49,688 nt of DNA, from positions 1-49,688 of the forward strand of contig DEQB01000035.1 in the NCBI GenBank assembly GCA_002359085.1, given 5' to 3'. A program made the translations under genes and the position numbers. Under the pieces are notes generated by a model. The model ran no database searches. It had not been told where the DNA came from and saw only the letters and a program-made list of their open reading frames with translations. The stretch is from Erysipelothrix sp. UBA3377 (GTDB lineage Bacteria > Bacillota_I > Bacilli_A > Erysipelotrichales > Erysipelotrichaceae). This document shows, piece by piece, positions 11,818 through 29,000 of the stretch (position 1 is its first letter; each line of letters begins with the position of its first letter).

Positions 11818-12408
11818 ATGATACAATATCCAAGTGGACAAGGTCCTTCAAAAACAACGCCAAAAAAAACCAGTACCAGCAATCGCGGAACACACTTAGA
11901 AGACGACATCAATCGTTCAAATGAGTACTACCGTCACAACAAGATTGCGCTTGTGCATAAGAAGCCAACGCCGGTACAAGTAGTGGGCGTTGACTACCCT
12001 TCTAGAAATAAAGTTAGAATCACAGAAGCCTACTATCGAAAGGCATCAACTACGGATTATAACGGTGTTTATAAAGGGTTTTATTTAGATTTTGAATCAA
12101 AGGAAACAAAAAACAAAACATCCTTTCCACTCTCAATGATCCATGATCATCAACTTGATCATTTAAAGTCAGTCATAGAACACAAAGGCATTGCCTTTTT
12201 CATTATTCGATTCACATCACGTAATGAAACATATTTAGTCTATGCTAATGATTTAATTGAGTTTATTAAAAACAATGAACGTAAATCCATACCCATTGCT
12301 TGGTTTAATAAACAAGCATATCTTATAAATATGCGATACCAAATACCCTGTGACTACATTGAAATAATAGAAAAACATATCCATGAGGTGAATAACAATG
12401 GACAATGA
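11818..12408 (+). CDS. recU: Holliday junction resolvase RecU
   Basis: Motifs MIQYPSG, NRG, HKKPTP, STTDYNG and DFESKET. Confidence 0.96.
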   Translation: MIQYPSGQGPSKTTPKKTSTSNRGTHLEDDINRSNEYYRHNKIALVHKKPTPVQVVGVDYPSRNKVRITEAYYRKASTTDYNGVYKGFYLDFESKETKNKTSFPLSMIHDHQLDHLKSVIEHKGIAFFIIRFTSRNETYLVYANDLIEFIKNNERKSIPIAWFNKQAYLINMRYQIPCDYIEIIEKHIHEVNNNGQ

Positions 12409-15400
12409 ACGTACCAAAGAATTAAATATACTGGAACTAAAAACTGGTCCTGACCAGAACGGCAAAGGAGATAACATGTCAAAAAAGAAACCAAAAACCA
12501 ATAAAAAGAAACGCGTAACGGGCGCTAAAGTCTTTGCGAGTTTCATTTCATTTGCGGCCGTCGCTTTCATAGCAGGTGTTGTGGTTGTGAGTTTGTTTAT
12601 CGTTTCAACGATCGCTCAAACCCCACCCATTTCCGCCGATGATTTCATTCAAAACGATTCAACCATTGTATTAGATGCAAGTGGTAACGTTATTTATGAC
12701 TTGGGTGAAAAGCTCATTGAAACCGTTGAATACGAAGATATATCACAATCTCTAATCGATGCTTTTGTCTCAATTGAAGATTCAAGATTCTTTGAACACA
12801 ATGGCTTTGACTTACCCCGCTTTACTTCAGCGATGCTTAAAAACGTGATGGTCACCCTTCAAACGATGAACTTATCATTTGATGGTGGGGGTGCTTCAAC
12901 CATTGACATGCAATTGGTACGTAATGCCCTTTTAACTGAAGAAAACGTTGAAACAGGTGAAGTTGAACTTCCCGCTTCAAGTGGTCTTGATGGTATCAGA
13001 CGTAAGATTAAAGAAATTTATTATGCAACCTTATTAAACAACGAAAGTATTTTAGACAAGAAAGCCATTTTCCAAAAATATGTCAATGAGATTTGGTTTG
13101 GGAGTGGCAACAACACACTGGGAGTTGAAAAAGCTGCCATGTACTACTTCGATAAAAGCGTATCCGATTTAACATTGGTAGAGTCCGCCTTTCTGGCAGG
13201 TGTTGTGAATGCCCCCAATTTATATTCTCCCTACAAGAGTCTTACTTTGGCTACGGAGCGAACACATACCGTACTTTATTATATGAACTACCATGGTTAT
13301 ATTGATGATTATGAATATGAACAAGCCCTTAAGATTCCTTTGGAAAACTTATTTGTGCAACAAAGCCTTACTTCAGAAGATGCGATGCCAAATCAGGCAT
13401 ATATCGATGTGGTCTTGGATGAAGTTGAAGCGTTGACGGGATTAAATCCAGCAACAACACCCATGATCATTCAAACGGCCATGAATACTGAGTTACAATC
13501 ACAATTAGATCTTGTACAAAATAGAGAAATTGCCAACCTTGATATCCGTCAAGTGGGTAACAGCCCCATTCAAATTGCTGCCACGGTTGTTGAAAATTCA
13601 ACCGGTGAAATTATCGGTATTGTCGGAGGGTATGACTACTATGGTCAACGTGTATTTAACCGTTCATACCACGGACTTTACCAACCAGGTTCAACCGCAA
13701 AACCTTTTATATCCTATGCACCTGCATTTGAATTTCTGGGTTATGCGACAAGCCATACTTTCTTAGATGGCCCTTATGTTTGGCAAGGTACAAATATCCA
13801 ACTGAATAACTGGGATAACCGTTATCGTGGACAAGTAACCCTTAGAGAAGCGATTTCACAATCATACAACATTCCAGCCGTCCTTACCTATGATGCTGTC
13901 AATGATAAAATTGGGCACTCACGTTATGTTGACTATGTAGAATCCATTGGTTTTGTAAGCTATGCCAACAACTTAAATGCATGGTTTGAAGCCATTGATG
14001 ATTCACGCCAAGGTAATGGACGCGATGCATTATCTGCTCAATTTGCGATTGGTGGATCCGATTTTTATACAAACACCCAAGAGCTTGCGGGTGCAACAGC
14101 GATGATCATGAACGGTGGCGATTATGTAACGCCCCATACGATTCGTGAAGTAACCATCGTCAATACGGGACAAGTTATTGAGTCCCCTTATAAAGCAACA
14201 CCCGTCTTATCGGAAGCTGCAGCTTATCTAACTGCCAAAACGATGCGCGATGTTGTGGACGACAACCGCGGTATTGACGCAACCCGTTATGTATCAAAGA
14301 GTTATACAACTTACGCAAAAACCGGTACTTCTAACTGGAGTTCAGATGACTCCGCCACTTATGGCGTACCTGCTGGATCCGCAAAAGATAGACTTTTACT
14401 CACCGGTACTGACAAAATAAGTATTGCTTCATGGTCTGGTTTCGATGCTGAAGAAATTAATAAAAAAGATGGTAAATCTTATTTCTCAAATGCTGAAAAG
14501 AATTTCCAAATTCAAAGTAGATTGAATGGATTTGTCCTTGATATTCTTGAGGATTACTATGGACCGGGTCAAACAATACCGCAACCTTCAACGGTTAAAG
14601 AGATTACACATATTTTGGGGTCCTTCCCCTATCAATCTCCAATCGCTGGTATGAACGAAAACCTCATTACCTCTGGACTTGTTAAAGCTGAAGCAGCTTC
14701 ACTGGTTCCGGCCACACCTCCTGAACTGGATTCCTTATCCAATTCAAGTGTGTCCGTAGAATCTTCCAGATTAAACAATGTGGTCAACATTACATTTGCG
14801 AAATATCCAGATGAAGAAAAACTAATCAAAGCACCAGATACAATTGAAATGACATCCGGAAACAGAACGTATACTGGTAAACGATTATATGATGCCTCAT
14901 GGATCTTTGGTCCCGTACGATATCAATCAGATATCATACTTAATGGTGAAATTATTGAAACCATTCAAAGTGATACAGAGACGCAACAATTCACGGTTCC
15001 CCTCAATACGTTTGGAACGATGGAAGTATGTACGTATTATACCTTTGAACTCAACACGGATGCTGTTTCTAATAAAATATGTCACCCGGTTGATTTGGCA
15101 GATGTTTCTGTTCGTGTACCTTCTTTTGGAACACTGGACGACTTAAATTACTTTGCGAACAACTACGAACTTAAGATCAACGTAACGTATCGTAATGAAG
15201 CGAACCCAAACAGTTACAATCGCGTGTTAGAATTAAATCCAAACCATCAAAAGAAAACTGTAAAAGTATCAGAAATCTATAACAAAACATGGGACGCCGT
15301 TATTGGAGATCACGAAATCGTGGTCAACGATATCATTGGATCATCCGCCCGTAATTTCTACTTATCTTATAGAAATTATTTAAACATTGATATGCCCTCT

Positions 15401-15502
15401 AGTGGTAATATCACAAAAATTGTTGATTCAAGCGGTAATCCCATAAACTCTATTAGACTCTCTACCTATGATGGTGGTAAAATTACTTTAGTTACAGAAT
15501 AG
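12398..15502 (+). CDS. ponA: Class A penicillin-binding protein (PBP1A); alternative start at 12476
   Basis: Transglycosylase motifs EDSRFFEHNG, GASTIDMQLVRN and RKIKE. Transpeptidase motifs STAK, SYN and KTG. recU-ponA synteny. Confidence 0.93.
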   Translation: MDNERTKELNILELKTGPDQNGKGDNMSKKKPKTNKKKRVTGAKVFASFISFAAVAFIAGVVVVSLFIVSTIAQTPPISADDFIQNDSTIVLDASGNVIYDLGEKLIETVEYEDISQSLIDAFVSIEDSRFFEHNGFDLPRFTSAMLKNVMVTLQTMNLSFDGGGASTIDMQLVRNALLTEENVETGEVELPASSGLDGIRRKIKEIYYATLLNNESILDKKAIFQKYVNEIWFGSGNNTLGVEKAAMYYFDKSVSDLTLVESAFLAGVVNAPNLYSPYKSLTLATERTHTVLYYMNYHGYIDDYEYEQALKIPLENLFVQQSLTSEDAMPNQAYIDVVLDEVEALTGLNPATTPMIIQTAMNTELQSQLDLVQNREIANLDIRQVGNSPIQIAATVVENSTGEIIGIVGGYDYYGQRVFNRSYHGLYQPGSTAKPFISYAPAFEFLGYATSHTFLDGPYVWQGTNIQLNNWDNRYRGQVTLREAISQSYNIPAVLTYDAVNDKIGHSRYVDYVESIGFVSYANNLNAWFEAIDDSRQGNGRDALSAQFAIGGSDFYTNTQELAGATAMIMNGGDYVTPHTIREVTIVNTGQVIESPYKATPVLSEAAAYLTAKTMRDVVDDNRGIDATRYVSKSYTTYAKTGTSNWSSDDSATYGVPAGSAKDRLLLTGTDKISIASWSGFDAEEINKKDGKSYFSNAEKNFQIQSRLNGFVLDILEDYYGPGQTIPQPSTVKEITHILGSFPYQSPIAGMNENLITSGLVKAEAASLVPATPPELDSLSNSSVSVESSRLNNVVNITFAKYPDEEKLIKAPDTIEMTSGNRTYTGKRLYDASWIFGPVRYQSDIILNGEIIETIQSDTETQQFTVPLNTFGTMEVCTYYTFELNTDAVSNKICHPVDLADVSVRVPSFGTLDDLNYFANNYELKINVTYRNEANPNSYNRVLELNPNHQKKTVKVSEIYNKTWDAVIGDHEIVVNDIIGSSARNFYLSYRNYLNIDMPSSGNITKIVDSSGNPINSIRLSTYDGGKITLVTE

Positions 15503-21456: not shown

Positions 21457-22404
21457 CTATAACAATTTCCCAACATTTTTAAGGCGAATATCAATCTCAC
21501 CATTGTCTTTTTCTTCAACTTCTAAAACAGCATCCACATCCAATTCATCCAAGGGTAATACGATTTCTAAACCCTTCTCTGTTACAATACGATGTTTGCG
21601 TCGACTGCTCAGACGATTGACCGCCGTTGACTCAACCCAAGCAGGTAGATGGGTTTCCATAATGGTATCATCCACAAAGTTCTTTTCTTCATCACTTAAA
21701 TCTTCAAAGACGGTTGTGATGATACGTTTGGTTTCAACTTCATCAAAAAGTTCAGCATGCTCTAAAACAACTTGCTTGGAACGAATCTTATCTTCCAAAA
21801 TATTGGAGTCTCTTTGAGTCGCTAAATAATCAACCATCACATCCACGATTTCTAAGGTTCTCTTCGCATTGGGGATCGTTTCAAACTTCAAAACAGATTC
21901 CAGTTGTTCTTGGGTTGCCATACTCAATTTCACGAAGAACTCCCCACTCTCTAGATCGAATGCGAAAGCAGTTTTAATGCTTGCGAAAGAATCGCTGAGA
22001 ATGCCCATACTCTGTTCGATATCGTCTGATACTTTTAAATAACCTGCACGACCCATGACTTCAAACATCACAAATTCAACACTGTCTTCAGTGTCAATCA
22101 TCGCAAAGATGAGATTTAATGAAGTATAGGTTGTACTACCAACATAATCATCAAACCATGCTTGCGCAATGCTTTTTGATAGGTCCATGAATTCAAAGTC
22201 ACGACTTCCAATAGAGGAGTACAACATACTTTCTTCATGTAAAAGCCCCTTAGAGACTGTATTTGATTTCTTAAATGCGTTGAATAACTTAAGAATATAA
22301 GTATCCAATTCAACATTTTGATTTAAATTTACTTGTTTTTCACTCAAAACTACCGTATTTAACTGATTGTCTACTGAGTGTATCACTACTTTTATTACTG
22401 ACAT
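21457..22404 (-). CDS. Nucleoid-associated protein (NA37/YejK-like)
   Basis: N-terminal VVIHSVD and C-terminal RKHRIVTEKGLEIVLP...NGEIDIRLKNV, typical of Firmicute nucleoid-associated proteins. Confidence 0.7.
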   Translation of the reverse strand: MSVIKVVIHSVDNQLNTVVLSEKQVNLNQNVELDTYILKLFNAFKKSNTVSKGLLHEESMLYSSIGSRDFEFMDLSKSIAQAWFDDYVGSTTYTSLNLIFAMIDTEDSVEFVMFEVMGRAGYLKVSDDIEQSMGILSDSFASIKTAFAFDLESGEFFVKLSMATQEQLESVLKFETIPNAKRTLEIVDVMVDYLATQRDSNILEDKIRSKQVVLEHAELFDEVETKRIITTVFEDLSDEEKNFVDDTIMETHLPAWVESTAVNRLSSRRKHRIVTEKGLEIVLPLDELDVDAVLEVEEKDNGEIDIRLKNVGKLL

Positions 22405-24113: not shown

Positions 24114-24144
24114 AAAAAAACAGTTAGTTGAAAAACTAACTGTT
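24114..24144 (-). terminator. Terminator of the glucosaminidase/anchor operon
   Basis: AACAGTTAGTT-N3-AACTAACTGTT plus T-tract, overlapping the stop codon. Confidence 0.8.
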
Positions 24145-25626
24145 CATATCACTTCTTCTTCTAAATAGTTCATTAAACTGCTTGGCTTTTCTTCGATATA
24201 CAAAAACCATCGTCAATACCAACGCTCCTAAAACTCCACTTACAACTTGATAAATCAAAATCTCATTGGAAACCTTTTGAACATCAAACGCCACATAAGC
24301 AATTTCACCTTCACCATTCATATTAATATGAGCCAAACGAACCTCGCCATTTTCATCAATAACATGGGTAAACAAACTCTCTTCATCATTAACCCAACCA
24401 TGAGCTTGTGTTTTAAAGTTCAAATCCATACCAAACTCAGTAAAAACATCCAAACTTGGCATGTCTAACAATGTATAAGGATTACCCCCATACGTTGGCG
24501 ACAACACACCTTCTTCAAGATCCAACTCCTGATCCACAACCATCACAACATGGTCATCATCACTAACCAAGATTACTTCATGTAAGACAGTTTTATCTTC
24601 GTCAATCAAAAGCCACTTAGCTTCACCCGCATCATTGGAGACCAACACTAACTTATTCTCACCATATTGGTAATAATAATCTAAGGCATCCTCATCCTCA
24701 AAGTACGTCACCTCAAACCCATAAGGTTTAAACAACGCATCCAGTAAAGCATCATTTAAGAAAGTATAACTCTCATCACCCACTTGATACGACACATCAC
24801 TCTCATCAGCCATGGTCACATTAATAATATAGGTCTGTTCAACTTCGCCTTCACTCGCTTTAACACGCACCTCAACCTTGTCATGACCATTATCAAGTTT
24901 ATACATCTGCGTATAATCCATATCAACATCATCATTCGTCGGATTCATGATCAATTTAAAAGCATTCACACCTCTGGGTAAAACCAATCCATATTCAAAA
25001 GTATTTTCTTTTGTTTCAACAGAACCAACCAACTTACCCTTCAAACGCGTCGCCTCAGAGAATATCTCAATTGAAGACACAACTGGTATCTTCATCTTTG
25101 CCTCTAATTCTCTAGCAGCTTTCTCTTCAGGAGTTTCTGCTTTCGGCAATTCTGGATTGTAGATATTGTTTCCTGGATCAGCGGTTCCTGACCCACCACC
25201 GGAACCTGAACCACCACCAGGGTTTGTTGAAGGTTTTGGACTTACAGTCACAGTCACCTTATTACCGTTCATATTTAATAAAGTACCATCATCTGCTTCG
25301 GAAGCTAAATCTGTCAAAGTAATCGTTGCAGTTCCTACTTTCTTTGCAGTATAGGTAAAAGTCATTCGTGCGGGGTCATCAGCAGAAGATGTATACGATG
25401 TAACACCGCTTATAACACTGGTATCAGAGATAGCCATGCGTATATTGTAATATGCTCGCTTAGATTGACCTGAGTCTACAATAATTGTAAATGTATCCCC
25501 AGGATAAAGTGTCGCAGAAGAACTTCTTCTAATAGATCCTGCTGCATGCACAACCCCTGTAAAAAGTAGTATCATCATCGCAAAAAGCGTCGTAATTTTA
25601 ATTGTCTTTTTTATTAATTTTACCAT
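24136..25626 (-). CDS. Membrane-anchored surface protein: cohesin-like N-terminal beta-sandwich, Gly/Pro linker, cadherin-like beta-sandwich, C-terminal TM
   Basis: Signal peptide ending VHA. Motifs GDTFTIIV...FTYTAKKVGTATITL, GGGSGSGGGSG linker and FEYGLVLP...LDNGHDKVEVRVKASEG...TYIINVT. C-terminal TM plus RRK tail, no LPxTG. Confidence 0.7.
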   Translation of the reverse strand: MVKLIKKTIKITTLFAMMILLFTGVVHAAGSIRRSSSATLYPGDTFTIIVDSGQSKRAYYNIRMAISDTSVISGVTSYTSSADDPARMTFTYTAKKVGTATITLTDLASEADDGTLLNMNGNKVTVTVSPKPSTNPGGGSGSGGGSGTADPGNNIYNPELPKAETPEEKAARELEAKMKIPVVSSIEIFSEATRLKGKLVGSVETKENTFEYGLVLPRGVNAFKLIMNPTNDDVDMDYTQMYKLDNGHDKVEVRVKASEGEVEQTYIINVTMADESDVSYQVGDESYTFLNDALLDALFKPYGFEVTYFEDEDALDYYYQYGENKLVLVSNDAGEAKWLLIDEDKTVLHEVILVSDDDHVVMVVDQELDLEEGVLSPTYGGNPYTLLDMPSLDVFTEFGMDLNFKTQAHGWVNDEESLFTHVIDENGEVRLAHINMNGEGEIAYVAFDVQKVSNEILIYQVVSGVLGALVLTMVFVYRRKAKQFNELFRRRSDMNS

Positions 25627-27758
25627 CCGTTAATTAATTCCTTTCCTGTCAGGTGTTGATGAATAACTCTTAAATCACCGATGGTTATTCTGTTATCTCC
25701 GTTTAAATCCGCCAATCCAATTTGTTCAGATGTCATCGTTTTCTTACCCGTTAAATGTTGATGAATTATTCTTAAGTCTCCAATCGTAAGTCTGTTATCT
25801 TTATTTAAATCACCTACTTTAAAATTTGGCGTAGGCTCTGGATCTGGTTTCGGATCTGGATCTGGAAGATCTCCACCGCCACTATTACCACCAATTGCGA
25901 TACCACCTTTTGTTAGAGATAAATGGTCTAGACTTAGGTAACCAATGTAATTACGGTTGCCATCGTTATATATTACTTGGAACCAACCGTTGTTTGTTTT
26001 ATAACCTGTAAGTTTTGTATCTTTGGGTATTGTCAATATAGCACTGTAATCTGTGGACCAATCAGGTCTTAAGTTTAAGTTTGATAGTGTGTATACGGTT
26101 GTTTGTGTAGATTCAAAACCAGGTGTTTCCTTCATAGTTGGATTGGTTTGAGTCAGTAAAGTACTATCGGTACCTGTAAATACAACGTCAACCAGTGTTG
26201 CGCTAATATAAATCTGTGAATTGTTGATGTTGAATTGAGCACGTCTGTTTGAGCCGTCAGTTTTCCATGGTAGTAACTTTTTATTTGAACCCAGTAAATG
26301 CTCAGAAGTTATTCGATACCAAGTGGTGTTGTTATCTGATCCTACCGCTTGACCCGTTATAGTATCCGTAATAAGCACAGGAATGCCATAATATTTAACT
26401 GTATAAACAACATTAGAATCATTTGCGATTGATGCGGTATTTCTCGTTCTCGCACTGTGACTGTTAACAATCCCTATTGTGTAACGCCCATAGTCTTTGA
26501 ACCCTGCGAGTTTGTCCATTGCGTAGTAGTGGTTTGCGATTTTTTCACCCCAATAAGGATCGGATGCATACTTAACATTCATACCCAATGCTTTATTACC
26601 TACGAATCCTCCGAAATAAAGGGGGTTATTCCCAGGATCTCCATCAATATAGTTCCAGTTCCAAAAAGTTGAGAAATGACGTTCTATGGCGAGTCCAGGA
26701 CTAGCATAAGTGGAGGCTGAACCCGGTGATGAATCATAAGCGGAGTGTCCAAAAAAGTTATTACGATTGACCGCAAAGTTTGCGCCACCATAGGCACTCT
26801 CATGAACTCCAGTTGAAAATGCGAGTGCTGCATTGCCTCCGTATAAGTTTCCATAATCAATAAAGAGTTGTTCCATTTCATACATTCTGGATTTGTAAGT
26901 ATTGTTGTAGTTCGCTCTAACGAGATAGTTTCTCAAGTCGGTTGCTGTAAGCTTCGTTTGCGCACGTGCAGGTAACCATTGGAAGTAATTGTAATAAGGC
27001 GCATCAGGATTAACTGAATGCGTTCTAATACCAGCCTTATAATCACTTACAAGGTGCGTATAACCTGCAACTGAGTTTTCATAGAAATAGTGTCCATCAA
27101 ATGATAAATATAACGTATTCGCTTGGATATAGTCGGGTGCTTTACCTTGAACCAATGCTCCAGATCCGTATCGGTTTGTTGTATCCGTTGCATCGTATTT
27201 GATGTAGTGAACCAACTCATTCTCACTATTTCTAGTATAGTAGTTATAGTTCGCATTGGTTGAAAAGTCACTTGTTTTAAACTTTGTTGTTTTATCAATC
27301 CAGCCCACAATACCGGCAAGCGCAATTTGATAACGGTTCTCTGTTTCATCAATCACCGCTACAACACCCGAATAAGATTTACCATCTGATACATATGTAT
27401 ACGCTGAAGTTGTTGTTGCATTTTTGTATATATTGACTGTGTTATTACCGGAACCTGTAAAAGTTCCAAGTTTTAAATTAGGAGTACTCAACAAAGAGAA
27501 AGTTCTCGCTCTGAACAATGGTTCTTTCACGCTTTCGATTTCTTGATCCCCAAGAACATATTCAACTTCTGTTTGAAGATTTGGCATAATGGTCAGTCCT
27601 TTTCCTACATCGATGGTTTCTGTTTCAACTGTTTCCGATAAAGTTTGCACATCAGTAACACTTGAAACATCATTAAAACCCTGTGCAAAAGTTACGACAG
27701 GTATCGTTAATGCAAGCATCGTTAGGAATAAAAGTAGTTTTTTAAGATTTGTTAACAT
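25620..27758 (-). CDS. Secreted GH73 endo-beta-N-acetylglucosaminidase (autolysin) with SH3-like domains and a C-terminal dockerin
   Basis: Signal peptide. GH73 motifs HESAYG, NNFFGHSAYDSSP and GMNVKYASDPYWGEKIA. SH3b (LNLR...GWFQV...GYLS). PDP linker. Duplicated DLNxDNRxTIGDLR dockerin motif. Confidence 0.9.
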   Translation of the reverse strand: MLTNLKKLLLFLTMLALTIPVVTFAQGFNDVSSVTDVQTLSETVETETIDVGKGLTIMPNLQTEVEYVLGDQEIESVKEPLFRARTFSLLSTPNLKLGTFTGSGNNTVNIYKNATTTSAYTYVSDGKSYSGVVAVIDETENRYQIALAGIVGWIDKTTKFKTSDFSTNANYNYYTRNSENELVHYIKYDATDTTNRYGSGALVQGKAPDYIQANTLYLSFDGHYFYENSVAGYTHLVSDYKAGIRTHSVNPDAPYYNYFQWLPARAQTKLTATDLRNYLVRANYNNTYKSRMYEMEQLFIDYGNLYGGNAALAFSTGVHESAYGGANFAVNRNNFFGHSAYDSSPGSASTYASPGLAIERHFSTFWNWNYIDGDPGNNPLYFGGFVGNKALGMNVKYASDPYWGEKIANHYYAMDKLAGFKDYGRYTIGIVNSHSARTRNTASIANDSNVVYTVKYYGIPVLITDTITGQAVGSDNNTTWYRITSEHLLGSNKKLLPWKTDGSNRRAQFNINNSQIYISATLVDVVFTGTDSTLLTQTNPTMKETPGFESTQTTVYTLSNLNLRPDWSTDYSAILTIPKDTKLTGYKTNNGWFQVIYNDGNRNYIGYLSLDHLSLTKGGIAIGGNSGGGDLPDPDPKPDPEPTPNFKVGDLNKDNRLTIGDLRIIHQHLTGKKTMTSEQIGLADLNGDNRITIGDLRVIHQHLTGKELINGW
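25654..25811 (-). repeat. Internal duplication (102-bp period) encoding the two dockerin halves
   Basis: tgttgatgaat...tctgttatct...tttaaatc occurs at 25654-25709 and again at 25756-25811. Confidence 0.9.
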
Positions 27759-27878
27759 GTTATCACCTTTTATATTTTATCATAGTGGGCTTTTGTTTGT
27801 GTGAATTTTACATAATTATCATAATATAATGTATTTTATCAAATTTGTGATATATTAATAACCAACGGAGGTATTCAT

Positions 27879-28574
27879 ATGAATCAAAGTAATTCTATTA
27901 AAAATAAATCAATAGTTGATAGCGATGAAACAATGACCAATAACATTCAACTCTCCTTTGGAGAAGAACTTGGAAATAGTATATCCCATGGCGTCATGAG
28001 CGTTTTACTCTTGTTTTCACTGCCTTTAGTTTCCATGTTTGGTTACGCAAAGGGTGGTTTTGTACTGGGTACAGGATATGGCATTTTTGTGATATCCCTG
28101 TTCTTAATGTTTACAGGGTCTACCCTCTACCATGCGATGGCTTATGAAACAAAACATAAGTATGTGTTCAGAATACTGGATCATATATTTATTTATGTCG
28201 CCATTGCGGGAAGTTATACACCCGTTTGTCTATACGTAATTGGTGGCACCTTTGGATATGTGCTTTTATTCTTACAATGGAGCATGGTTTTGATTGGTAT
28301 TCTTTATAAATCGATTGCCCGAAAATCAATTCCCAAACTATCCGTCACAATCTATCTGATAATGGGTTGGACCGCAATTGTTGCGCTACCCACCTTGATC
28401 AGAAATTCAAACGCTTGGTTTTTATCCTTAATTGTTTTGGGTGGTGTTCTGTATAGTGTGGGTGCATGGTTCTATATGCAAAAGGATCGTCCTTATTTCC
28501 ACTTTATTTGGCACTTGTTTATCATTGCTGCTTCAATTGCACACTTTATTGCTATTATTTTCTTTATCGGATAA
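27879..28574 (+). CDS. Hemolysin III / PAQR family membrane protein (TrhA-like)
   Basis: Motifs EELGNSISHG, STLYH, LDHIFIYVAIAGSYTP and HFIWHLF. About 7 TMs. Confidence 0.93.
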   Translation: MNQSNSIKNKSIVDSDETMTNNIQLSFGEELGNSISHGVMSVLLLFSLPLVSMFGYAKGGFVLGTGYGIFVISLFLMFTGSTLYHAMAYETKHKYVFRILDHIFIYVAIAGSYTPVCLYVIGGTFGYVLLFLQWSMVLIGILYKSIARKSIPKLSVTIYLIMGWTAIVALPTLIRNSNAWFLSLIVLGGVLYSVGAWFYMQKDRPYFHFIWHLFIIAASIAHFIAIIFFIG

Positions 28575-28770
28575 TACGTAAAACCTTAATGGTTTGATGT
28601 TCCCAAAGAAACAATATACGCCAAGGTCCCGTCTTAAAGACGTGGCCTTTTTTTTCTAAAGGTTCACTGTGCACATACTTCTTTTCAAAATAATCCAGTA
28701 ACATATGACTTTGAACTTTGTCTTGTGACTTTAAATCTTCAAGGACTTGGGCATCATATAAGAAGGTCAT
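28564..28770 (-). CDS. Putative short/degenerate RelE/ParE-like toxin
   Basis: 68 aa with an ATGA overlap to the upstream antitoxin. Pattern EDLKSQDK...FKTGPWRILF...IKVLRI resembles RelE (DLKKLDK...RVGDYRII...VLVI). Confidence 0.5.
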   Translation of the reverse strand: MTFLYDAQVLEDLKSQDKVQSHMLLDYFEKKYVHSEPLEKKGHVFKTGPWRILFLWEHQTIKVLRIIR

Positions 28771-29000
28771 AACAACCCCAAACGAGACTTCAATTCTTCA
28801 GAAGTCAACAAACTGGTCGTATCAGTATGGCGTGACATTGCTTCATCAAAAGTCAACGCATCCAGTTGATTTTTGATTTCATTCAGAGCACTCTCACGCA
28901 AAAATTCGGAGATACTGATGCCCTTTATCTCCGCAAAATTTCGTATTAAAGTGTTTTCTTTTTCATTAAGTCTTAATGAAACTGTATATTTCTCACTCAT
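28767..29000 (-). CDS. RHH-type antitoxin (RelB/DUF6290-like)
   Basis: TVSLRLNEKE...GISISEFLRESAL (ribbon-helix-helix) and C-terminal EELKSRLGL. Confidence 0.75.
   Translation of the reverse strand: MSEKYTVSLRLNEKENTLIRNFAEIKGISISEFLRESALNEIKNQLDALTFDEAMSRHTDTTSLLTSEELKSRLGLL

Follow-up and report, generated by a model that had tools for sequence, protein, structure and literature searches.

Dockerins bind cohesins in a calcium-dependent manner, an interaction best known from cellulosomes. A dockerin comprises two tandem segments of about 22 residues, each with a calcium-binding loop (D-x-N-x-D ... D) followed by a helix, and a cohesin is a nine-strand jelly-roll beta-sandwich of about 140 amino acids (aa). 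Dockerins without known partners are common. The single-cohesin anchors of Clostridium thermocellum attach to the wall via S-layer homology repeats, not via a C-terminal transmembrane helix, and the non-cellulosomal modules of Clostridium perfringens join secreted enzymes to each other, not to a membrane anchor. The peptidoglycan hydrolase LytB is targeted by choline-binding repeats. As far as the accessible passages of the respective papers go, related systems in print include a lone dockerin and a lone cohesin associated with glycoside hydrolase family 73 (GH73) in the non-cellulolytic Ruminococcus bicirculans (Ze et al. 2015, PMC4611034), the one-cohesin one-dockerin operon ClcC/ClcD of Cellulosilyticum lentocellum, for which the heterodimer was shown experimentally (PMC13487519), and the dockerin-bearing lysozymes of rumen metagenomes together with the 'lyticome' idea (PMC6403190, PMC6487960). 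Here we compare with these systems a gene pair from Erysipelothrix sp. UBA3377, located in a stretch of 49,688 nucleotides (nt) of contig DEQB01000035.1 (assembly GCA_002359085.1), hereafter called the window. Gene 1 encodes a predicted secreted glucosaminidase with a C-terminal dockerin and gene 2 a putative membrane-anchored stalk protein with an N-terminal beta-sandwich (the N-domain). Judging from sequence comparisons, we consider it about 70% probable that a calcium-dependent dockerin/cohesin-like pair tethers the LytB-like glucosaminidase to the membrane stalk on the producing cell.

A dockerin-tailed glucosaminidase and its putative membrane-anchored partner

The two genes overlap by 7 nt (ATGGTAA), the minus strand reading ...GGAAAGGAATTAATTAACGG-ATG-G-TAA, and the sequence AAAGGA lies 12 nt ahead of the gene 2 ATG. 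The features of the pair are listed below, with coordinates in the window and residue numbers in the translations.

25620..27758, minus strand: gene 1, predicted secreted peptidoglycan glucosaminidase with C-terminal dockerin, 712 aa
26496..27110, minus strand: gene 1 residues 217-421, part aligned to the solved endo-beta-N-acetylglucosaminidase chains 4q2w and 7pj3
25926..26084, minus strand: gene 1 residues 559-611, SH3b-like domain (SH3_3 24.1 bits, below the cut-off of 27)
25830..25892, minus strand: gene 1 residues 623-643, Gly/Pro-Asp-rich linker with the right border of the variable cassette
25650..25814, minus strand: gene 1 residues 649-703, type-I dockerin with two near-identical calcium-loop/helix repeats
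24136..25626, minus strand: gene 2, putative membrane-anchored stalk protein, 496 aa
25543..25626, minus strand: gene 2 residues 1-28, signal peptide (...GVVHA/AGS), assigned by eye
25237..25542, minus strand: gene 2 residues 29-130, N-terminal eight-strand beta-sandwich, proposed cohesin-like dockerin receptor
25147..25236, minus strand: gene 2 residues 131-160, Gly/Ser/Pro-rich linker with the left border of the variable cassette
24802..25089, minus strand: gene 2 residues 180-275, Cadherin-like beta-sandwich (Pfam and model)
24277..24801, minus strand: gene 2 residues 276-450, mostly beta, membrane-proximal domain without family assignment
24196..24261, minus strand: gene 2 residues 456-477, C-terminal transmembrane helix, assigned by eye and kept in homologues
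25231..25835: variable cassette of dockerin, junction, signal peptide and gene 2 N-domain, from contigs of public runs
27815..27842, minus strand: promoter-like site TTGATA-16-GATAAT upstream of gene 1, a consensus match only (10/12 positions)
24118..24145, minus strand: terminator-like hairpin with a 12-bp stem and a T run, directly after gene 2

Gene 1 begins with a signal peptide, recognised by eye. Its residues 297-415 match the Pfam Glucosaminidase family (PF01832, GH73) with 39.7 bits, above the cut-off of 30.2, and the best solved relatives of residues 217-421 are 4q2w and 7pj3 (E-value 1.5e-14). We take both chains to be LytB of Streptococcus pneumoniae, a cell-separation enzyme, the structure record giving only the molecule name. 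The HESAYGG of gene 1 aligns to LESNWG of 4q2w, conserving an ES..G motif whose Glu is presumably the catalytic acid of GH73, and YASDPYWGEKIA is identical. Because ES..G and YASDPYWGEKIA align with the solved chains, the catalytic machinery of gene 1 looks intact. The unusual part of the protein is its targeting module, a dockerin. Dockerin_1 (PF00404, cut-off 22.9 bits) is matched with 38.7 bits in the protein and 43.6 bits at the DNA level, and both repeats of the form DLNxDNRxTIGD...HQHLTGK are present as a near-identical pair, DLNKDNRLTIGDLRIIHQHLTGK and DLNGDNRITIGDLRVIHQHLTGK. Across 19 aligned dockerins, D7, N9, D11 and D18 are invariant.

In gene 2, the hydrophobic stretch at residues 456-477 is followed by a 19-aa basic tail, probably cytoplasmic, which fits a plain transmembrane anchor. 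Since this helix is at the C-terminus, the N-domain would be the part of gene 2 farthest from the membrane. Anchoring by sortase was rejected, as no LPxTG was seen by eye in the translation. The Pfam Cadherin-like family (PF12733) is matched at residues 235-271 marginally (24.3 bits, cut-off 24.2) and partially (profile positions 50-87 of 89); it exceeds the cut-off in 13 of 20 gene 2 homologues, and the domain is present in 14 of them. A model of residues 150-455 (mean predicted local distance difference test, pLDDT, 83.3) consists of a helix, a Cadherin-like sandwich and a mostly beta membrane-proximal domain. The Cadherin-like part (model residues 31-126) aligns to 4ftd with a Z of 9.2 and a root-mean-square deviation (rmsd) of 2.7 over 93 residues, and it was the only part with an informative match in the fold search of residues 150-455; the membrane-proximal domain, although modelled with confidence, had none in this search, which barely probed it. 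An NCBIfam scan of the gene pair added nothing to the Pfam result and gave no cohesin in gene 2.

Most of the architecture proposed in the initial annotation was recovered. The 7-bp overlap and the Shine-Dalgarno sequence AAAGGA inside gene 1 can be read off the DNA, and the signal peptide, Gly-rich linker, C-terminal transmembrane helix and lack of LPxTG in gene 2 were seen again by eye; the cadherin-like stalk agrees with the marginal PF12733 match and with the model. For gene 1, the GH73 assignment and the dockerin repeats stood, and of the SH3-like domains one stretch scored with SH3_3, below cut-off (SH3_3 is above cut-off in 6 of 18 upstream dockerin genes of relatives). The proposed single shared terminator is consistent with a hairpin after gene 2 and the lack of any terminator-like hairpin between the genes in a consensus scan; promoter and terminator are consensus matches only, and terminator-like sites are not enriched (2 found, 2.4 expected from shuffles). 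Contigs from two metatranscriptome runs cover gene 1, gene 2 and their junction. These were not counted as expression because a contig says nothing about the existence, ends or level of a transcript.

Conservation of the gene pair in relatives

In a collection of 5.8 billion proteins, only 7 other relatives of gene 2 were found (36-53% identity). In the gene 2 alignment, the first ~100 residues past the signal peptide are freely variable and the remainder is conserved. We then turned to a sample of 201 genomes of the same family, covering 83 genera. The gene 2 profile matched in 31 genomes from 20 genera, and 20 of these loci were taken for analysis. Directly upstream of the gene 2 homologue, a C-terminal Dockerin_1 was detected in 18/18 genes at an E-value of 0.01 or lower, 15 of them above cut-off, and the two loci ending at a contig edge both have a dockerin just upstream. 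The catalytic domain of the 18 upstream genes is GH73 in 14, GH25 in 2 and Amidase_2 in 1, with no catalytic family in the last (2290 aa). Since a dockerin is found in all upstream genes and the catalytic domain varies, the dockerin is the constant element travelling with gene 2. The conservation of the pair in relatives, suggested earlier as a check, is borne out by these loci and by the following survey of dockerins and N-domains.

An N-domain profile (A2) was built from 21 sequences. Of the 201 genomes, 94 have Dockerin_1 and 60 have a match to the N-domain profile. When the N-domain match lies in a frame of at most 600 aa, a listed dockerin is found 93-196 nt upstream on the same strand in 57 of 64 cases; none of the 12 matches inside longer frames has a listed dockerin upstream. 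At least one dockerin/N-domain pair is present in 49 genomes, with two pairs in six and three in one. The exceptions to pairing include two loci with only sub-threshold dockerins behind GH25 (G170:C32 and G057:C23), one with a degenerate dockerin remnant recognised by eye (G082:C4), two cut by contig starts (G151:C15 and G155:C355) and three with no listed dockerin (G015, G069 and G041). Viewed from the dockerin side, 103 of 145 instances combine a C-terminal dockerin with a downstream open reading frame (ORF) starting within 80 nt; the frame runs on past the dockerin in 27, and 10 have no downstream ORF. A Cadherin-like domain begins near residues 133-175 in 44 of the 68 partner N-termini scanned.

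Some loci depart from the simple layout. L044:477-5494 has two dockerin-tailed genes in tandem followed by an anchor, and L049:2484-7004 has a dockerin gene, an anchor and a second dockerin gene. In addition, one class of partner N-domains carries conserved cysteines within its first ~70 residues (...PG..F....CG..EG......NA........WCDRG...), which suggests a disulfide-stabilised variant of the receptor domain. This class was seen in L043, L044, L045, L046, L073, L074, L076-L079, L082, L089, L092-L094, L104, L107 and L108.

Relation of the N-domain to cohesins

In the sampled family, Pfam Cohesin (PF00963) is matched in 44 of 201 genomes (E-value of 0.01 or lower), with none in the 4 genomes of the window's genus, and a listed dockerin precedes 20 of the 54 matches by less than 700 nt. 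Twelve dockerin-partner proteins share the layout of gene 2, namely a signal peptide, an N-terminal domain, a Cadherin-like-type stretch and a C-terminal hydrophobic tail. The N-domain of every one of them (12/12) is a Pfam Cohesin, and two (G030 and G200) had been matched by the gene 2 profile earlier in the N-domain region. Because all 12 same-layout partners match Pfam Cohesin, the position of the window's N-domain is occupied in relatives by a true cohesin.

We compared 103 partner N-domains all against all with phmmer (independent E-value below 1e-4 over at least 60 residues), using reversed and shuffled decoys. There were 1119 real matches and 0 decoy matches, and a single component of 85 domains contains the window's N-domain together with all 12 cohesins. 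The shortest path from the former to the latter runs over edges of 1.4e-8, 3.9e-5, 3.4e-14 and 8.5e-6. In profile-profile alignment with hhalign, the window's cluster (56 sequences) aligns with the cohesin cluster (18) at 93.7% probability (E-value 1.9e-7, 26 columns) and with an intermediate cluster (7) at 87.7% (3.4e-6, 102 columns), and the intermediate cluster aligns with the cohesin cluster at 96.6% (6.7e-10, 106 columns).

An AlphaFold2 model of the N-domain (107 residues, pLDDT 87.5) is an eight-strand beta-sandwich. In a Foldseek search, the first rank was taken by the C. perfringens GH33 cohesin 2vo8 (E-value 8.7e-5, template modelling score 0.55). Further cohesins in the list were 2w1n (score 0.68), 3ul4 (rank 23), 2jh2, 5n5p, 3kcp and 6kgf, interspersed with S-layer, complement and TRAPPII immunoglobulin (Ig)-like domains. 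With VIA-align, 105 of the 107 residues were superposed on cohesin 2w1n (Z 9.1, rmsd 3.1). The modelled fold appears compatible with a cohesin and is not proof of one. Taken together with the clusters, it is probable but unproven that the N-domain is a shortened, strongly diverged relative of cohesins, a case of remote homology; it probably works like a cohesin and is probably a diverged one, yet it is not a Pfam cohesin.

Related modules also occur in other arrangements. In P0015 (916 aa), the N-domain profile matches at six places ahead of GH25 and SH3_3, so that this kind of beta-sandwich is fused directly to a lysozyme. Five giant frames (1600-2483 aa) contain Dockerin_1 and, 40-58 nt later, an in-frame Pfam Cohesin (G196:C1:91968-92567, G082:C21:12572-13138, G074:C3:27155-27676, G139:C3:73086-73607 and G013:C26:737-1321). 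With dockerin and cohesin in one polypeptide, such proteins could self-associate or form chains.

A variable cassette spanning dockerin and N-domain

A search for the locus found one relative among genome contigs and one among metagenome contigs. We compared L041, a contig labelled uncultured Erysipelothrix sp., with the metagenome contig L042. Upstream of a break, up to the Pro/Thr linker of gene 1, the two agree at 70/74 positions. Over the dockerin, junction, signal peptide and N-domain (~590 nt) they are unrelated, with 35-55% identity, and from the Gly linker of gene 2 onward identity is 95-100% for ~2.3 kb. A cassette of ~0.6 kb is thereby replaced between near-identical flanks. At least four different N-domains (those of P0003, P0004, P0007 and L042) were observed in front of a near-identical remainder of gene 2, beginning at the Gly linker, which gives more than two cassette alleles in that lineage.

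The window's own locus shows the same pattern in public sequence. Nineteen runs of 9 studies contain this stretch, with labels of chicken gut, manure, feces, compost, wastewater, bioreactor and soil. Four runs were compared as contigs, two of them RNA libraries and two probably DNA. In all four, contigs end at ~25143-25236 and start again at 25834-25837, and in runs X1 and X3 the segment 25231-25855 is a contig of its own. Its word depth in X1 is 8.4, compared with 18.6 and 25.5 for the flanks; depth being given once per contig, this is a hint only, and neither depth differences nor uncovered bins were taken as proof. Other sequence follows the loose ends at 25236/25251 and 25809/25826/25834; translated by eye on the gene strand, they read as beginnings of further dockerins (...YQLGDVTGD, ...YKLGDVNND) and as the last part of a different N-domain. 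Contigs of X4 connect both flanks across a replaced middle. The borders of the window's cassette fall at gene 1 residue ~641-645 and gene 2 residue ~130, in the two linkers already seen as borders in L041 and L042.

Across 86 pairs, dockerin distances correlate with N-domain distances (Spearman 0.46), and in partial Mantel tests r was 0.37 (p 0.001) for the N-domain versus 0.20 for the next segment. The best explanation of these comparisons would be that dockerin and receptor form a specificity pair which is exchanged between strains as one cassette.

Proposed tether and alternative explanations

We propose that gene 1 and gene 2 are an operon dedicated to tethering an autolysin. Gene 1 would be exported and would cut peptidoglycan through its LytB-like GH73 glucosaminidase module. 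Gene 2 would be a type-I membrane protein, its signal peptide removed and a single C-terminal transmembrane helix retained, in which the Gly-rich linker, the Cadherin-like domain and the membrane-proximal domain serve as a stalk presenting the receptor away from the membrane. Through its type-I dockerin, and presumably with the help of Ca2+, gene 1 would dock onto the N-terminal beta-sandwich (~100 aa) of gene 2. The enzyme would be retained in this way on the producer's own envelope and would probably act on the cell's own wall. The suggestion in the initial annotation that gene 2 is the cognate membrane scaffold is supported by the conservation of the pair, by the cohesin in its place in relatives, by the intermediate cluster and by the cassette swap, several independent lines of comparison.

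Several results weigh against this proposal, and most of them bear on the N-domain. The initial annotation had seen a cohesin-like pattern at the N-terminus of gene 2 and suggested a hidden Markov model search with Cohesin (PF00963). That search gave no match at an E-value of 1 or lower, and none of the 20 gene 2 homologues matched at 0.1 or lower; taken alone, the pattern resembles a Big_2-type Ig motif equally well. The N-domain profile had its best match to PDB sequences at an E-value of 0.019, with nothing significant and no cohesin among the best 60 matches. Searched against 1.84 billion representative proteins, it gave 2980 matches with giant multi-repeat proteins foremost, and 13 top proteins that were scanned contained Big_2 in 8 cases and Cohesin in none. 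The domain is short (~100 aa with 8 modelled strands, versus 122-137 aa for the 12 cohesin stretches of relatives), and fold scores are tied among GH2 and complement domains (Z 9.2), cohesin (9.1) and Big_2 (8.8). The N-domain clusters separate at 1e-6, the linking edges having E-values of ~1e-5, and direct hhalign alignments to cohesins reach 85-94% probability over just 26-27 columns (27 for profile A2 against A6). As for the cassette, the Mantel test did not reach significance on the 21 pairs analysed first (rho 0.14, p 0.14), linkage and kinship confound such tests because related genomes are not independent, and joint swap and covariation could arise from linkage alone, since dockerin and N-domain adjoin on the DNA. 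Several of these points would fit an N-domain that is a generic Big_2-type Ig-like tip or spacer and not a dockerin receptor. The profile search does recover proteins with Big_2, Big_9 and PKD-type repeats, and the Cadherin-like domain, conserved as well in partner proteins (14/20 and 44/68), could then be what the dockerin binds, alternatives being the membrane-proximal domain, another protein, a wall polymer, or a dockerin acting only as a calcium-binding stabiliser; the joint swap would be a by-product of linkage and of diversifying selection on an exposed tip. The window's N-domain itself gave no Pfam match to Big_2 (PF02368) at an E-value of 1 or lower. We regard an Ig-like tip as unlikely, given that a Pfam-verified cohesin is found at the same position in relatives of the same architecture, that both swaps stop at the same two linkers with the dockerin always included, that dockerin distances track the N-domain more than the next segment, and that the alignments leading to cohesins through the intermediate cluster cover the entire domain.

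The pair could also be real and serve something other than housekeeping, with the hydrolase as a weapon or public good directed at other bacteria, or with gene 2 as a holder or inhibitor until release. In favour of this, the accessible passages of published papers contain dockerin-bearing lysozymes and the idea of a 'lyticome' (PMC6403190, PMC6487960), populations are polymorphic for the cassette, as loci under conflict would be expected to be, one and the same tail is found on GH73, GH25 and amidase proteins and on giant ones, and some loci have two dockerin enzymes per anchor. Such a role has a low probability in our estimate: the reduced 1.3-Mb genome has this as its sole dockerin and sole such anchor, the pair lies in core chromosome beside wall and division genes and is adjoined by neither mobile nor toxin genes, the C-terminal transmembrane anchor would retain the enzyme on its producer, and the nearest solved structures to the catalytic part are endo-beta-N-acetylglucosaminidase chains, which we take to be the pneumococcal cell-separation enzyme LytB. 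That the two proteins make no contact at all, being merely co-expressed envelope proteins (an autolysin and an unrelated adhesin or stalk) with an orphan dockerin module, is highly improbable. It would agree with the 93 of 150 listed dockerins in the family that are not followed by a match to the N-domain profile. It conflicts with the spacing of 57/64 N-domains at 93-196 nt behind a dockerin, with the 103/145 C-terminal dockerins that have a downstream ORF starting within 80 nt, with the survival of the pairing when the enzyme domain changes, and with the true cohesins at the same position in relatives. We keep the tethered glucosaminidase as the preferred explanation.

Genomic context

The assembly that contains the window measures 1.30 Mb and is 84.5% complete. 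A scan for further dockerins, as suggested with the initial annotation, gave exactly one dockerin in this genome; there is likewise exactly one N-domain of the gene 2 type, and the genome search returned no Pfam Cohesin match. In the window, the 37 other ORFs are housekeeping genes by a family scan (E-value of 1e-5 or lower), including FtsK, RNase J, RNase Y, RecA, a class A penicillin-binding protein (PBP), an LtaS-like sulfatase, Ddl, MurF, DivIVA, MreC, glycolysis genes, PolA and RelA. Genes for the wall and for division (class A PBP, Ddl, MurF, DivIVA and MreC) surround the gene pair, and a prophage or mobile origin was rejected because the window is core chromosome. In the same scan none of the 37 ORFs matched a plant-polysaccharide enzyme family, in agreement with the earlier remark that the window has no cellulase or other such enzyme.

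Three further regions of the window may be mentioned. At 28564-29000 on the minus strand, two small overlapping ORFs of 77 aa and 68 aa resemble an antitoxin/toxin-type pair, the 77-aa ORF having a ribbon-helix-helix-like N-terminus by eye. Downstream of gpmI (21457-22404, minus strand) lies a gene for a 315-aa protein with no Pfam family at an E-value of 1e-5 or lower, and a similar-looking 318-aa ORF, also judged by eye, follows gpmI in L042 (L042:3971-4927). In the class A PBP (12398-15502, plus strand, 1034 aa), the Transpeptidase match stops at residue 655, leaving ~380 C-terminal residues without a family at the same threshold.

Implications

If the proposed binding is real, this low-GC lineage would place and control its peptidoglycan hydrolases with a cellulosome-type connector and not with wall-binding repeats, and the role of the many lone dockerins in non-cellulolytic bacteria would have a testable answer. 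The pair also points to a short cohesin-like receptor class that is unrecognised by Pfam. Naturally swapped cassettes would constitute a ready-made orthogonal plug-and-socket set for protein display, and their polymorphism within populations raises the question why a housekeeping tether diversifies.

A bolder view, which we offer tentatively and consider possible though doubtful, is that populations keep many orthogonal dockerin/receptor alleles at one locus and swap them by recombination within the two low-complexity linkers, with a miniaturised cohesin class as receptor. The autolysin would then dock only on cells of matching allele, or an exposed tip would escape phages while the pair co-evolves. 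If so, allele matching would amount to privatisation or kin-addressing of a dangerous enzyme, and a miniaturised cohesin class missed by current family models would explain many 'orphan' dockerins in non-cellulolytic Firmicutes.

Comparison with known systems

The initial annotation overrated the novelty of the locus, since a remark on a genome with GH73, a lone dockerin and a lone cohesin had been published before, to judge from the accessible passage (PMC4611034). As in R. bicirculans, a gut Firmicute, the only dockerin of the genome is associated with a GH73 wall hydrolase and one partner. The R. bicirculans case is a remark on a genome, and the passage that contains it gives no operon, anchor architecture, conservation or test (PMC4611034); the cohesin there is annotated as such, in contrast to the receptor domain here, which fails Pfam Cohesin, and the lineage differs. 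In the limited collection of full-text literature searched, we found no description of a membrane-anchored Cadherin-like scaffold operon, of a Pfam-negative receptor class or of a joint cassette polymorphism.

The pair resembles ClcC/ClcD in that the genes are adjacent and probably co-transcribed, ClcC and ClcD carrying the only cohesin and dockerin of their genome (PMC13487519). As described in the available part of that paper, ClcC/ClcD differ in combining a GH5 cellulase with a scaffold of CBM3 and X2 modules, in lacking a membrane anchor and in serving cellulose degradation (PMC13487519). The cohesins of C. perfringens glycoside hydrolases (2vo8, 2w1n, 2o4e and 2jh2) are similar in being beta-sandwiches outside plant-cell-wall degradation and are the best cohesin matches to the N-domain model; identity is 11-13%, and they measure 130-140 aa compared with ~100 here. 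With OlpA of C. thermocellum (complex 3ul4), the putative anchor shares the principle of a single-cohesin surface protein that directly binds an enzyme-borne type-I dockerin, here proposed from sequence; the clients of OlpA-type anchors are cellulosomal enzymes. Finally, in contrast to LytB, the targeting module of gene 1 is a dockerin, apparently served by a dedicated protein anchor.

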